Source: a virus
Virus genome (UHGV): UHGV-1491546
Direction: 5' to 3' (one strand)
Length of the DNA: 39,185 bases
The position numbers were made by a program, and so were the translations under genes. Of the stretch, positions 3,789-39,185 are shown in pieces. The stretch's first letter is position 1. Every line of letters starts with the position of its first letter. The notes below the pieces were generated by a model. That model was not told where the DNA came from. It searched no databases and saw only the letters and a program-made list of their open reading frames with translations.

Positions 3789-4757
3789 TTAGTAGGTTAT
3801 TTTTGTTGCGAATACTTCGCCTTTTACGATGGCTGTTATGATATTTTTAGCAACATCTTCTGATGCGCCAACCTTGATAAGGTCAGCAAGTATTTTGTTA
3901 TTTACTTCTTTCCGGTGAGCTTTATCCTTTGCTCTACGCTCTTCTTCTTCCTTGATTCTTTTTTCTTCTGCTATTCTGGCTTGCTCTTTTGCTTCAGCCT
4001 CGCGCCGGATTCGTTCAGCCACCTCCTGTGCTTTTCGGCGTTCTGCTTCAATTGCCGCCTGCTTTTCTCTTTCAGCTCGTTCTGCTGCCTCTTTTGCTTC
4101 GCGCTGTGCTCGTTGCTCGGCTTCAATACGTTCACGCTCTGCACGTTCCGCTGCGGCCTTAGCTTCTGCTTCTCGCCTTGCTGCTGCTTCAATTTCGGCT
4201 TTTGCCTTTGCTTCGGCTTCTGCTCTGGCTTTCTCTTCAGCTTCTCTTTTTAAGCGTTCTTCATGCTCTCGCTTTTCCCGCTCCGCTTTGAGTCTTGCCT
4301 CTTCTCTTTGGCGGTCAAATTCGCGATCCATCAAAATCGCTATTTCATGGTCAGACTCAATTTGCTTTGCGAGAGCTTCAGCTGCTGCCTTAGCTTCTTC
4401 TTCGGCTTTAATCCGCGCCTGTTCTTCCTCATAATCAGTAAGAGGCTGGCGCGCCTTGGCTTTCAGCTCATCAAGGCGATCACGCACTGTCTTGCGGTTG
4501 GCATCAATTAGCTTTGGAATTTCCTTCAGTTCAGCAACAAGGTCTTTGCCAAGACCATCGAGATATGTTTTCGTCTGCGCAACTTTATACGCCAGAGAAG
4601 CGATCTCATTTCTGCCCTTTGCCGTTGTGATATCAGGCACAAAGGACATAACTTCACGTTCAACCTTTTGGAGAATTTCTTCAATCTGGTCGGCAGACTG
4701 AAATACAGTCATTGCATTTGCTTTTTCAATAACAACTAAATCTGTTACTTCACTCAT
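3789..4757 (-). CDS. highly charged Ala/Glu/Arg/Lys-rich coiled-coil protein
   Basis: ATG 4755-4757 with strong GGAGGA SD (track ORF extends to 4811); about 170 residues of low-complexity AEAEAKAKAE/RERIEAEQR repeats. Confidence 0.6.
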   Translation of the reverse strand: MSEVTDLVVIEKANAMTVFQSADQIEEILQKVEREVMSFVPDITTAKGRNEIASLAYKVAQTKTYLDGLGKDLVAELKEIPKLIDANRKTVRDRLDELKAKARQPLTDYEEEQARIKAEEEAKAAAEALAKQIESDHEIAILMDREFDRQREEARLKAEREKREHEERLKREAEEKARAEAEAKAKAEIEAAARREAEAKAAAERAERERIEAEQRAQREAKEAAERAEREKQAAIEAERRKAQEVAERIRREAEAKEQARIAEEKRIKEEEERRAKDKAHRKEVNNKILADLIKVGASEDVAKNIITAIVKGEVFATKITY

Positions 4758-4769
4758 ATATCCTCCGTC

Positions 4770-4798
4770 AAAAAAATTGCCCTCACATTGGAGGGCAA
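4770..4798 (-). terminator. rho-independent terminator in the pL operon (tL-type)
   Basis: Minus strand reads TTGCCCTC-CAATGT-GAGGGCAA followed by seven T; immediately upstream of the SD of the 3789-4757 gene. Confidence 0.6.
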
Positions 4799-4891
4799 AG
4801 AAGATTTCCAATAATCAGAACAAGTCGGCTCCTGTTTAGTTACGAGCGACATTGCTCCGTGTATTCACTCGTTGGAATGAATACACAGTGC

Positions 4892-5080
4892 TTATTCGTC
4901 ATGCATTTCAGGTAATTCTTCGTATTCGACGCCCCATACGAGTTTACACCAAGTGACTCGCTCATATCTTTTACAAAAATCAGACCACATAACTTGTGTT
5001 CCATCATGGTTTGTTATTACTTCTGTAATATCACCAACACTAACAAAACTGGTATTAGAAGCAGTTATTTTTACTTTCAT
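4892..5080 (-). CDS. hypothetical early-left protein
   Basis: 62-aa ORF; ATG 5078-5080 overlaps the upstream stop (TAATG). Confidence 0.5.
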   Translation of the reverse strand: MKVKITASNTSFVSVGDITEVITNHDGTQVMWSDFCKRYERVTWCKLVWGVEYEELPEMHDE

Positions 5081-5367
5081 TACTTATCCCCAAGAGCTTT
5101 TCTGATTGCTGCAAGACCTTTATTAACAGCTTCATACCATTCTGGATATGTTGTCGTTGTTCTATTTTTGGATTGCTTAAGTAATAACTGAAGTGCTTCG
5201 AGAAGGTCAGGTGCTGCCGCTATCAGTAGCGCATCCTCCCTTTCATTTCTTGTTGCTGCTTCAATGTATGTGTCACCAATCGTCACACCATGGAACGTAG
5301 TCATCATCTCGTTGACGTTTCTAACCGTGTACTTCCATTTACCAGGCGTACCCTTAAACTCTTTCAT
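5080..5367 (-). CDS. hypothetical early-left protein
   Basis: ATG 5365-5367 preceded by AGGTG; track ORF begins at a GTG at 5373; 95 aa. Confidence 0.5.
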   Translation of the reverse strand: MKEFKGTPGKWKYTVRNVNEMMTTFHGVTIGDTYIEAATRNEREDALLIAAAPDLLEALQLLLKQSKNRTTTTYPEWYEAVNKGLAAIRKALGDK

Positions 5368-5375
5368 ATTCACCT

Positions 5376-5415
5376 CTGTTGTTTATGCCCAAAATAAAGG
5401 CCGACTATGCGGCCT
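5376..5415. repeat. direct repeat copy 1 (terminator-like)
   Basis: CTGTTGTTTATGCCCAAAATAAAGGCCGACTATGCGGCCT; near-identical copy at 5919-5956; contains hairpin AGGCCG-ACTATG-CGGCCT. Confidence 0.7.
5390..5415 (-). terminator. rho-independent terminator after gene 5414-5884
   Basis: Minus strand: AGGCCG-CATAGT-CGGCCT hairpin followed by TTTATTTT; the gene stop codon lies in the stem. Confidence 0.5.
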
Positions 5416-5884
5416 AGTAGAATACCCAATTTTCTGTTTCTTGGTTGTGTCCAAAGTTATATTCAATATCTGGTGTTGATGTATCAATATTCTTCATCCC
5501 ATCAACAAGAGTTGATACAACAGCCAAATCTTGTTTGATTCTCATCAAATGGTATTTCTTTCGGCGCAATAAACTTTCAATGGCAAGTTTCTTAGTCGGG
5601 AATGCAAAAGATCTTTCTGCATTTTTTGCTACTTTCTTAATTGCATATCTATTTCTCTTTTGTTTCCATTCCTGTAACCACTGATTTGGTGCTGGTTTAA
5701 AATTAACAATCCAATGCGCAGGAACCAACCATGCATAATGCTCTGTCTGATGAAAAGCTATATATTGAAGTGCGAATATTTTGATTCCATCTTCTTCAAC
5801 TGTCGCTTGGAATCTCCAGAAAACAGGCATTCCATCATGTTCAGTTTCTGATTCAGGAAAAGGTACGCTCCATGATTTTGTCAT
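5414..5884 (-). CDS. hypothetical protein bracketed by direct repeats
   Basis: 156-aa ORF; ATG 5882-5884 with GAGGTG SD; flanked on both sides by the 38-40 bp repeat. Confidence 0.6.
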   Translation of the reverse strand: MTKSWSVPFPESETEHDGMPVFWRFQATVEEDGIKIFALQYIAFHQTEHYAWLVPAHWIVNFKPAPNQWLQEWKQKRNRYAIKKVAKNAERSFAFPTKKLAIESLLRRKKYHLMRIKQDLAVVSTLVDGMKNIDTSTPDIEYNFGHNQETENWVFY

Positions 5885-5918
5885 ATCTCACCTCAAATAA
5901 TTCAGTGCAGTGTTTATT

Positions 5919-5956
5919 CTGTTGTTTATGCCAAAAGAAGGCCGACTATGCGGCCT
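5919..5956. repeat. direct repeat copy 2 (terminator-like)
   Basis: CTGTTGTTTATGCCAAAAGAAGGCCGACTATGCGGCCT; differs from copy 1 by one substitution and two deleted bases; same hairpin. Confidence 0.7.
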
Positions 5957-6569
5957 CGGAAGGAAGTCCAATCATCTTATTCAAATCTTCTACCCGTAAA
6001 GCAGGAAGTGCTGTACTTGCTTTATCTGCTTCTTTTGGTAGCAATTCTTTGCTTTCAGGCCAAACCTCAATAAGTCGCTTAACTGTTGTGACTGAGTTCA
6101 AAGCAGCCCATACATTTGATTCGATATCCTTTTTCTTGGCTTCAAGTTTTTGTTGCAATGCGCAGATTTCATCAAACCTTTTTGTTATTTCGTGTTCTGC
6201 GCTAAACATGCATTTATCTTTGTTCGGAGTAGGGAGCAATATATCTTCGCCGTTGCCGTCTTCCCCATATGAAAGCCATCCAACCCTTCTGCCAGATACA
6301 GTCAGATAAATTGAAGTAGAACGAACATCGTATGAGTAAAATGAACATCCCATCTTTCCAAGTTCTTCACTTATAGCTACCAACTTGGATGATAACTGAT
6401 CCACTTCCTCAGTTTTCTTTTTACCGCCAAACGCAATAACTCTGGCGTCAAGTGCAAGCTGGTTCTTTAACTTTGTTACTTCTTCAAGTTCAGTGAAAAC
6501 CCCAGACTTAATTAAAGCGTTACGAGCGATTTCCTCTTTCATTCTCGTAGTTAAGCGGATTGATGACAT
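5946..6569 (-). CDS. hypothetical early-left protein
   Basis: ATG 6567-6569 with GAGGA SD (track ORF extends to 6638); 207 aa; stop codon lies in the loop of repeat copy 2. Confidence 0.6.
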   Translation of the reverse strand: MSSIRLTTRMKEEIARNALIKSGVFTELEEVTKLKNQLALDARVIAFGGKKKTEEVDQLSSKLVAISEELGKMGCSFYSYDVRSTSIYLTVSGRRVGWLSYGEDGNGEDILLPTPNKDKCMFSAEHEITKRFDEICALQQKLEAKKKDIESNVWAALNSVTTVKRLIEVWPESKELLPKEADKASTALPALRVEDLNKMIGLPSEAA

Positions 6570-6634
6570 ATTAATTCCTCTCAAATAAGTGGTTTGCTGC
6601 CAAAACAATGAACCATCCGGAAATTCCAGATAGT

Positions 6635-6859
6635 TCATAATTCACTCTTCAATACTTCCAACTTACTAATCGCCGATAGATATCCGCGCTGATAGGGCAT
6701 CATCATTCCTTCGAGCTTGCCACTTCTTAACTCCTCCCTGAGCAATTGTATTGCTTGATCAATAACCTCTGCCTTAGCGTCCTTTATGGCTTGCTTGCGG
6801 GGCTTTGCTTTCTGCTTTGGCAGATTTCTCAAGCATGATGGAATGTATGTCTGATTCAT
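6635..6859 (-). CDS. small hypothetical protein immediately downstream of N
   Basis: ATG 6857-6859 with GAGG SD inside the N 3-prime end; 74 aa. Confidence 0.5.
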   Translation of the reverse strand: MNQTYIPSCLRNLPKQKAKPRKQAIKDAKAEVIDQAIQLLREELRSGKLEGMMMPYQRGYLSAISKLEVLKSEL

Positions 6860-6862
6860 CAC

Positions 6863-7135
6863 TTACCTCGCCGTCAGTTGTTTTGATTTCCGGTAGCCTG
6901 CCGCGTAAAGAGCTACGTTTGGCAGGCAAATACTTCCACTGCATTCATCTGCCTTCTTGCAGCGAAGGCTTCCGAGTGAAGCTGCTTTGTCTGCTCTGAC
7001 GCAACCAGAGAGCTTTAGCGCAATTTTTCGCGCCAGTCGCTGCTCTTGCATTGCCTGTTCACGTTGAGCCTGTCTGCGTGCTCTGCGGCGATTTCTGGCG
7101 TTATCGTCAGCCAGATATGTAATGACTACTGTCAT
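6863..7135 (-). CDS. N: N-type transcription antiterminator (P22 gene 24-like)
   Basis: From ATG 7133-7135 (GGAGG SD): MTVVITYLADDNARNRRRARRQAQ... with an N-terminal arginine-rich motif and C-terminus LPNVALYAAGYRKSKQLTAR close to recalled P22 gp24; track ORF extends to 7207. Confidence 0.8.
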   Translation of the reverse strand: MTVVITYLADDNARNRRRARRQAQREQAMQEQRLARKIALKLSGCVRADKAASLGSLRCKKADECSGSICLPNVALYAAGYRKSKQLTAR

Positions 7136-37814: not shown

Positions 37815-38969
37815 TTATTCATTTTCATCAAGCCAGTCCGCCCACCACTGCATCATTTCTCTGCGCTTGTCTAGATACTGAGCATGGTTATAAATCCCAC
37901 GCACAGATCCGCCGTTGGCGTGTGACAGTTGCACTTCAATAGCGTCAGCAGGCCATTCGTGCTCGTTCATAATCGTGCTGAATTCATGCCTGAATCCGTG
38001 ACCGCTTTCCAGACCCTCATAGCCGATTCGTTTGATCACAAGTAATACCGCGTTCTCGCAGATTGGCTTCTTCTTATCGTTGCGCCCGGCAAAAACAAAC
38101 TCTGATACTGGTTTGGTGATTGAGCTTAGCGTAGTGAGAAGTTCAACCACCTGGTCTGACATAGGAACAACATGAATCTTGCGGCCCTTCATCACACTGG
38201 CGTCGATAGTGATAATCCTGTTTTCAAAATCGACGTTCTTCCATTGCATTGAACGAAGCTCTTTCGTTCTTAGGGCTGTGTAGCGTAAAACTTTGGTCGC
38301 AATGAGCGATACGATGCTTCCTGAAAATGTTGCCAGTGCTTTGTTGAATGCAGGGATCTGGTCTGCAGGAAGAAACGGGAAGTTCTTCTTGCGGTATCCC
38401 TTCATGGCGTCAGCAAGGTCAGGTGCCGGGTTATATTTAGCCCTACCAGTGACAATAGCGTAACGGAAAACCTCGCCGCATCTTCTGCGTGCTTTGTTGG
38501 CTCGCTCCATTGCACCGCGATCTTCAAATCTGCGGATTACTTCCAGCAGTTGCATCGGCTCAATATCCTGAATTTCAAGGCCGCCGATGATGGGTAAAAT
38601 GTCGTCATCAAACATTTTGGCAAGTTCAGTTGCATAGCCTACTGACCAGACTTGCTTCTTGTGCTCGTACCATTCCTTGTAAATCGCACTAAAGGAATTG
38701 TTGTTAGACGAAGCCTTTTTCGCTTTTACCGGATCGATGCCAACCGAGATGTCTTTCCTCGCGGTCCATGCTTTATCCCTTGCCTCCTGCAAAGTCATAA
38801 GCGGATATTTTCCGACGGTCAGGATTTTCTCCTTACCGTCAATCTTGTAGCGAAGCTGCCATACCTTTTTCCCGGATACAGGAACATAAAGGTACAGGCC
38901 ATTACCATCGAGAAGGCGGTATGGTTTTTCTTTCGGCTTTGCTGCTTCAATCTGCTTAACGGTGAGCAT
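37815..38969 (-). CDS. int: tyrosine integrase, P4/IntS family
   Basis: From ATG 38967-38969: MLTVKQIEAAKPKEKPYRLLDGNGLYLYVPVSGKKVWQLRY... matches recalled E. coli IntS (argW-specific, P4-type); catalytic R..H..R..Y region present; track ORF starts at GTG 39005. Confidence 0.85.
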   Translation of the reverse strand: MLTVKQIEAAKPKEKPYRLLDGNGLYLYVPVSGKKVWQLRYKIDGKEKILTVGKYPLMTLQEARDKAWTARKDISVGIDPVKAKKASSNNNSFSAIYKEWYEHKKQVWSVGYATELAKMFDDDILPIIGGLEIQDIEPMQLLEVIRRFEDRGAMERANKARRRCGEVFRYAIVTGRAKYNPAPDLADAMKGYRKKNFPFLPADQIPAFNKALATFSGSIVSLIATKVLRYTALRTKELRSMQWKNVDFENRIITIDASVMKGRKIHVVPMSDQVVELLTTLSSITKPVSEFVFAGRNDKKKPICENAVLLVIKRIGYEGLESGHGFRHEFSTIMNEHEWPADAIEVQLSHANGGSVRGIYNHAQYLDKRREMMQWWADWLDENE

Positions 38970-39130
38970 GGGTAAAAATCCGGTGGGTAAAATTATTTTA
39001 TCCACTTTTTACCCGTCATGGAGTGCGGCTGTCAACGATCTGAAGCGAACCATGACGAACTGTGAATCTACGGAAGGCTTGATATTCAGGGGATTTTGCG
39101 GACTGGTACGGATGGGAGCGAACTGATAAA

Positions 39131-39185
39131 TGGTGTCCCCTGCAGGAATCGAACCTGCAATTAGCCCTTAGGAGGGGCTCGTTAT
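39131..39185 (-). tRNA. argW: tRNA-Arg(CCU) (argW-like), 3-prime 55 nt only; attachment core region
   Basis: Reverse complement ATAACGAGCCCCTCCTAAGGGCTAATTGCAGGTTCGATTCCTGCAGGGGACACCA shows anticodon loop CU-CCU-AA, T-arm GGTTCGATTCC and 3-prime CCA; 5-prime part beyond window end. Confidence 0.75.

Follow-up and report, generated by a model that had tools for sequence, protein, structure and literature searches.

Do phage genomes owe their mosaicism to recombination targeted to conserved gene boundaries, or to random illegitimate joins among which selection afterwards chooses? This long-running debate has not been settled. The question is raised in a concrete form by a 39,185-nt stretch of viral DNA (hereafter the window), in which two near-identical direct repeats of 38–41 nt, at 5375–5415 and 5918–5956, bracket a conserved gene for a 156-aa protein. 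Are these repeats the ends of a mobile unit, or do they belong to the ordinary junctions between phage genes?

Genomic setting of the bracketed gene

The window is a P22-like prophage, with a sar RNA, a tRNA fragment beside an integrase-sized ORF, and ORFs of the sizes of portal, coat and tailspike genes. The sar RNA, an antisense RNA of the P22 immI region, lies at 34773–34840 (minus strand, 92.8 bits), and the tRNA match, truncated at its 5' end (39134–39185, minus strand), adjoins the integrase-sized ORF at the end of the window, consistent with a prophage attachment site. An int-alpA RNA match (Rfam RF02996; 16200–16266, plus strand; 43.7 bits against a gathering score of 35.8) is located mid-genome, distant from the integrase.

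Every gene of the locus lies on the minus strand, in the early-left (pL) operon, an assignment made because an N-like antiterminator gene and a 75-aa gene adjoin it. The entire 4700–6650 segment is AT-rich, with flanks of 47–52% G+C. In minus-strand order the features are:

6866–7135, minus strand: N-like antiterminator gene (PF25694)
6635–7135, minus strand: 75-aa gene (phrog_5305) together with the N-like antiterminator gene
6570–6638, minus strand: second junction type, a 14-bp terminator-like hairpin (6608–6638), U-tract and linker GGCAGCAAACCACTTATTTGAGAGG leading into the Nmad5 gene
5946–6569, minus strand: Nmad5-family gene, 207 aa (PF18757, E = 2e-72)
5918–5956, minus strand: repeat copy B, 38–39 nt, TCTGTTGTTTATGCCAAAAGAAGGCCGACTATGCGGCCT
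5885–5902, minus strand: leader of the 156-aa gene, AATTATTTGAGGTGAGAT, 18 nt, holding the Shine-Dalgarno sequence
5414–5884, minus strand: 156-aa gene of the HK97 Gp45 / 933W ST933Wp19 family (phrog_1636)
5375–5415, minus strand: repeat copy A, 40–41 nt, TCTGTTGTTTATGCCCAAAATAAAGGCCGACTATGCGGCCT
5080–5367, minus strand: 95-aa gene (phrog_1273), its RBS directly after the linker of copy A
4892–5080, minus strand: 62-aa gene (phrog_10407), the last of three genes between the extended copy B and hairpin 2
4854–4891, minus strand: hairpin 2, a 14-bp perfect stem without a U-tract (-25 kcal/mol, z = -5.7)
4770–4858, minus strand: PreS/LPR1 homologue, near-identical to that of lambda, ending at a tL2a-type terminator
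3792–4757, minus strand: gene for a 322-aa, highly charged coiled-coil protein (phrog_1376; no Pfam family; annotated as TolA-like in APC_JM3.2)

In the related phages examined, cIII and kil come after the homologous coiled-coil gene; the locus belongs to the accessory segment between N and cIII.

The Nmad5 gene was listed as an ORF of 230 aa; its true start is almost certainly the ATG at 6569, which gives 207 aa, because the Nmad5 match is full-length and agrees with the annotated 624-nt homologue of HK542. The 230-aa reading would cross the 14-bp hairpin at 6608–6638 and overlap the end of the 75-aa gene. The 95-aa gene is itself mosaic, its N-terminal half resembling that of contig L128 and its C-terminal half that of APC_JM3.2, with the switch point near the conserved motif LIAAAPDLLEALQ (window 5083–5367 against L002 3249–3545 and L128 1245–1529). 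The block of the 156-, 95- and 62-aa genes lies between ...AAACACTGCACTG and hairpin 2, and the motif GCACTG occurs at both of its ends (4886–4899 and 5903–5912), possibly as microhomology left from an original insertion.

Downstream of this block, positions 4770–4891 are nearly identical to the lambda ral–ea10 intergenic region that ends at tL2a, and the tL2a-type terminator is present as a stem at 4777–4798 followed by a T-run. Hairpin 2 abuts the predicted 5' end of PreS and might serve as a processing signal. In lambda, LPR1/PreS is an Hfq-dependent small RNA of about 88 nt whose 3' end is tL2a; it is made in the lytic cycle and activates dnaN (bioRxiv 10.1101/2024.10.31.621285).

Structure of the two repeats

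Copies A and B differ by one substitution and two single-base indels. The window contains exactly two occurrences of their 19-nt core, AAGGCCGACTATGCGGCCT, and 100 shuffles gave none. Read on the minus strand, each copy consists of a hairpin (AGGCCG-CAUAGU-CGGCCU in the RNA), a U-tract and the linker GGCAUAAACAACAG, which leads to the RBS of the next gene. The parts are arranged as follows:

5398–5415, minus strand: hairpin of copy A
5387–5397, minus strand: U-tract of copy A
5375–5389, minus strand: linker of copy A, GGGCATAAACAACAG
5939–5956, minus strand: hairpin of copy B, followed by its U-tract and linker GGCATAAACAACAG
5903–5918, minus strand: extension of copy B, AATAAACACTGCACTG, giving an extended form of 5903–5956

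The hairpin, here termed hp1, is the same in both copies (AGGCCG-CATAGT-CGGCCT), with a stem of 6 bp, five of them G-C pairs, and a loop of 6 nt; folded in isolation, it has an energy of about -9.6 kcal/mol (centroid). Next come TTTATTTTGGG (copy A) and TTCTTTTGG (copy B); the tails on the RNA read UUUAUUUU and UUCUUUU, respectively, and beyond the U-tract both copies continue as GG(G)CAUAAACAACAG. With no gap, the linker of copy A passes into the RBS of the 95-aa gene and then its ATG. Within the extended copy B, only 5918–5956 recurs in copy A, and the extension is, in most phages, the usual 5' flank of hairpin 2 and PreS. The whole element, 40–56 nt between a stop codon and the next RBS, is thus a short conserved intergenic sequence.

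The form is that of an intrinsic terminator, a G+C-rich stem-loop with a U-tract directly after it at the 3' side of a coding region, with a stem at the short end of the usual range. A terminator scan of the window reported copy A alone, and the 61-nt context of copy A folds no better than its shuffles (z = 0.01). The hairpins overlap the ends of the genes that precede them: the last two bases of the TAG stop of the 156-aa ORF are the first two bases of hairpin A, and hairpin B provides the last codons of the Nmad5 gene (GAG GCC GCA TAG), whose stop at 5946–5948 sits within the loop. The original prediction, which had described near-identical repeats of 38–40 bp around the gene, each with a GC hairpin and a minus-strand U-tract and each containing a stop codon, is thus borne out in its structural description.

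Rfam has no family at either repeat or at PreS. A target-site duplication was rejected as the origin of the repeats, 40 bp being too long and the element being widespread as a single copy. A promoter arising from the linker motif TTGGCA was also rejected: no usable -10 was seen by eye at a spacing of 16–18 nt, and none was found in a scan.

The bracketed gene and its junctions

The 156-aa protein is well conserved. Of 83 phage records with a match, 80 encode it at 98–100% identity, Stx phages being numerous among them, and homologues down to 55% identity occur in prophages of other Enterobacterales. The original prediction saw no recognisable family here, and this holds to the extent that the protein has no match in Pfam, NCBIfam, PADLOC or the sequences of the PDB; it does belong to the HK97 Gp45 family, and phrog_1636, the only match among PHROGs, is a family without an assigned function. 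A first AlphaFold model, built with 22 close homologues, was poor (pLDDT 69.5), and its Foldseek comparison with the PDB found nothing. A profile search of 1.8 billion representatives revealed a wider family of proteins of 130–155 aa, no member of which has a Pfam domain. As modelled, the protein has a confidently predicted fold with no solved relative. A role in host takeover or anti-defence is a reasonable guess, because the gene adjoins Ral-type cargo in an early accessory segment.

The junctions of this gene were compared over 21 full-length copies in the fetched loci. What travels as a constant unit is the leader (A)TTATTTGAGGTGAGAT and the ORF, with the leader at 5885–5902 marking the 5' limit of the sequence that moves with the gene in every context examined. 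On the 5' side, the unit is preceded either by some gene followed by hp1 and the long linker, or by the linker GGCAGCAAACCAC; on the 3' side, it is followed either by hp1 or by TACGAATAAGCACTG and hairpin 2. All four combinations of these 5' and 3' junctions exist. In HK97 and 933W, for instance, the gene comes directly after N through the GGCAGCAAACCAC linker and is followed by TACGAATAAGCACTG and hairpin 2/PreS, with hp1 on neither side; in most other contexts hp1 stands on one side only. The same gene therefore does occur without flanking repeats, and the bracket from which the original prediction started is not its normal state.

The direct-repeat bracket arises only when hp1 is present at both junctions, and the window is alone in this among the 21 copies. 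A two-gap pattern requiring both hairpins around the gene detected one further case in 2.9 million IMG/VR contigs, namely L128. This is a different phage, with a lambda-type N and a 149-aa predicted membrane protein upstream where the window has Nmad5, and the homology between the two breaks off precisely at base 5956. The two-sided bracket was absent from 185,579 species-representative genomes, and neither the phage records nor the complete E. coli genomes contain the full arrangement. The only other two-copy contig of the first sample, L118, contains an N and duplicated flanks and was set aside as a probable assembly artefact.

The alternative state of the locus is also found. In APC_JM3.2 and three viral contigs (loci L002, L065, L091 and L111), Nmad5 is followed by one hp1 and then by a gene of the 95-aa family. 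Recombination between the two repeats, with removal of the 543-bp unit, would be expected to leave exactly this product. Because the bracket is rare and the gene occurs with zero or one hp1, the repeats represent a common 3'-end module carried by each of two successive genes and not the terminal repeats of a mobile unit.

Distribution of hp1 and the genes that meet at it

The element extends far beyond this prophage. An exact-match scan found the 18-nt hairpin in at least 119 IMG/VR contigs, almost always as one copy each. It is present in 228 of 50,697 phage records, including lambda, P22-like, HK97-like and Stx phages with E. coli, Salmonella and Shigella as hosts, and in 1,418 of 5,426 complete E. 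coli genomes, about a quarter. In lambda itself, a decayed copy (AAAGCTGCCTGATAGTGGCCTTTATTTTTGGCATAAATAACAGAATAAACACTGCACTG) lies directly after ral, and the same linker comes next, ahead of hairpin 2 and PreS.

To characterise the flanks, 124 instances of hp1 were oriented and the adjacent ORFs clustered into families. At least 28 unrelated families end at hp1 and at least 20 start after it, in many combinations; the frequencies of the junction types are biased, since the IMG/VR sample was chosen for the presence of hp1. The repeat thus flanks different cargo in different phages, as would be expected of the portable junction originally proposed. Upstream cargo includes Ral (PF11058, anti-restriction), Nmad5, DUF7666, a predicted membrane protein of 149 aa and numerous orphans, and homology between phages begins or ends exactly at the edge of hp1.

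In nearly every instance the hairpin shares or supplies the stop codon of the upstream gene, either as a TAA or TAG over its first one or two bases or as the TAG of the loop, which places the stop at +1, +2 or +11 relative to the start of the hairpin. Where the loop TAG is used, as in 13 of the at least 28 upstream families, the protein ends in K/E/Q-Ala-Ala. The C-terminus of lambda Ral also reads K-A-A-stop. A common C-terminal Ala-Ala might affect protein stability, for example through recognition of the ClpXP type.

Beyond the hairpin, the junctions are assembled from a limited list of parts. After hp1 and its U-tract comes one of two linkers, GGCATAAACAACAG or GGCAGCAA(A/G)CCAC. The former runs on into AGGTGAATATG, a gene start, or into AATAAACACTGCACTG, which leads in turn to hairpin 2/PreS or to the leader of the 156-aa gene; the latter runs on into TTATTTGAGGTGAGATATG or AGAGGTGAATATG. 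The GGCAGCAA(A/G)CCAC linker is also found after the end of N and after several hairpins unlike hp1 in sequence. Four such hairpins fill the hp1 slot before the same U-tract and linker:

AAGGCCTC-TGATT-GAGGCCTT
GAGGTCGC-AGAATAA-GCGGCCTT
AACCCGTC-CAAG-ACGGGTT
the 14-bp hairpin also present in the window (6608–6638, minus strand)

Because hairpins of differing sequence share one slot before one U-tract, the comparison suggests that selection may retain the combination of hairpin and U-tract, as would fit an intrinsic terminator.

A probable reusable boundary between genes

The explanation that best accommodates these observations casts hp1 as a conserved sequence between genes at which lambda-like phages undergo homologous recombination; we consider this likely from the pattern of junctions. 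In the same way, it is likely to represent a reusable gene-junction module of the N–cIII accessory segment of the early-left operon. On the mRNA, the module comprises a short G+C-rich hairpin at or over the stop codon, a U-tract, and a linker of 14–30 nt ending in the next RBS. About a dozen unrelated proteins owe their final codons and stop (K/E/Q-Ala-Ala-stop) to it. Genes would be exchanged, gained and lost by homologous recombination within 40–60 bp of common junction sequence, carried out by the host RecA or by a phage single-strand-annealing protein such as Erf or Red-beta; we infer both that crossovers fall within hp1 and that proteins of these kinds mediate the exchange. The two direct copies in the window would permit precise loss of the 543-bp unit, and the rarity of the bracket may itself reflect this, since direct repeats should make the arrangement unstable.

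At the RNA level, the hairpin and U-tract would form an intrinsic terminator of modest strength, which N-modified polymerase passes in lytic growth. Termination without N would stop stray transcription and keep the downstream early genes N-dependent and silent in the lysogen. Judged from the form of the hairpin and U-tract, hp1 is probably an N-suppressible terminator, although its stem has only 6 bp and the lambda copy is degenerate.

It is tempting to go further and suppose that hp1 has been selected for promoting cassette exchange, and is not a passively shared terminator. The element would then offer a universal 3' end that tolerates imprecise joins, with stops in two of the three reading frames, and a landing pad of 40–60 nt for the annealing proteins Erf and Red-beta; phage annealing proteins need roughly 40–60 nt. 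This stronger reading is rather unlikely. If true, it would make the N–cIII segment an integron-like, recombinase-independent cassette array of anti-defence and host-takeover genes.

For the general argument about mosaicism, hp1 as a boundary for homologous exchange provides an unusually clean, countable case in favour of the boundary-targeted model: one 18-nt hairpin, dozens of unrelated genes, sharp breaks of homology at its edge, all junction combinations for the 156-aa gene, and a rare repeat-bracketed intermediate. A defined site of 40 bp also gives a direct experimental handle on deletion and crossover, with and without Erf/Red and RecA. In a segment that carries Ral (anti-restriction) and PreS (regulatory), hp1 marks the boundaries of accessory genes, and these boundaries could aid annotation and the choice of cargo genes such as the gp45 family.

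Alternative explanations

The opposing view of mosaicism could in principle account for the same junctions, if rare illegitimate joins were followed by selection for a compact terminator and homologous exchange only spread the joins later.

A second possibility is that hp1 is conserved mainly because it serves the RNA in some way other than termination, as a barrier to 3' exonucleases that protects the mRNA segment of each gene or as a processing signal for PreS, and that recombination at it is incidental. In most phages hairpin 2 and PreS come immediately after the hairpin, N-modified polymerase would pass it during lytic growth, and the terminator named for the ral–ea10 region of lambda is tL2a, which differs from the degenerate hp1 copy and lies further downstream (bioRxiv 10.1101/2024.10.31.621285). 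However, hp1 also occurs far from PreS with protein-coding genes directly after it, and a G+C-rich stem followed by a U-tract is the canonical form of an intrinsic terminator, so we regard this view as unlikely. It does not conflict with the recombination pattern.

Cassettes moved in a structure- or site-specific manner, with the hairpin recognised by a recombinase or nuclease or used in template switching during replication, would explain why homology breaks sharply at the 5' base of the hairpin in every family, why the promoterless cassettes each end in a hairpin, and why the hairpin structure is apparently maintained across sequence variants. Such attC-like behaviour is nevertheless very unlikely: no dedicated recombinase lies near, the sole integrase-sized ORF (37815–39005) being about 32 kb away; on the 3' side, the linker has breakpoints at three or more different positions, as homologous exchange predicts; the 156-aa gene also occurs with entirely different junctions; and the perfect 6-bp stem lacks the bulged bases of attC sites.

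A classical moron is also very unlikely. On that view the 156-aa gene would be an autonomous insertion that brings a promoter and a terminator along and is active in the prophage, with the repeats as marks of its entry. In its favour, the gene separates neighbours that adjoin each other in the four loci named above, has a terminator-like hairpin at its 3' end and lies in an AT-rich segment. Against it, no sigma-70-like site emerged when the minus strand of 5885–5960 was scanned with the promoter consensus, the travelling leader of 18 nt is just an RBS, the orientation is that of the N-antiterminated operon with the gene directly after N in HK97 and 933W, and its G+C content of 35–36% is close to the 37–43% of the adjacent genes. 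Because promoter, position in the early-left operon and composition all disagree with it, the moron label of the original prediction was rejected. The accompanying proposal of a cassette exchanged at a portable terminator survives in part, as a portable terminator-like junction and a gene that is precisely absent elsewhere, and it is the boundary module described above that this part now supports.

Relation to known systems

Morons are reportedly the subject of Juhala et al. and Hendrix et al. (both 2000). The 156-aa gene shares with them its position as an extra gene between neighbours that are adjacent in relatives and its 3' terminator-type hairpin; unlike them, it has no promoter of its own in the scan, belongs to an early and not a late operon, and has the composition of its neighbours. 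The likeness to integron cassettes lies in promoterless single genes that end in a hairpin-forming sequence and stand in series in variable order. It does not extend to an integron integrase or to attC sites, which are imperfect palindromes with extrahelical (bulged) bases, whereas the exchange seen here fits homology.

Closer to home, the window shares hairpin 2, PreS and the downstream tL2a with the lambda ral–ea10 region, and lambda has its hp1 copy after ral. The differences are that the lambda hairpin is degenerate and that the window carries the 156-, 95- and 62-aa genes between the extended element and hairpin 2/PreS.

A full-text literature search with the hp1 sequence found no paper, in a coverage that leaves key older papers outside; within it, the hp1 element, the shared use of its stop codon and its relation to lambda ral/PreS may be previously undescribed. 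The principle is familiar. According to PMC3233612, which refers to Susskind & Botstein 1978 and to Clark et al. 2001 (on HK620), lambdoid phages have been proposed to recombine at short conserved sequences between their genes, and PMC2327257 summarises the same idea. Like these boundary sequences, hp1 is short, conserved and intergenic, with differing genes on both sides, reassorted flanks and breaks of homology at its edge; what sets it apart from them is a terminator-type hairpin with the stop codon of the upstream gene within it or overlapping it. Rather than a new kind of element, hp1 is a clear example of a known route by which phages shuffle their genes.
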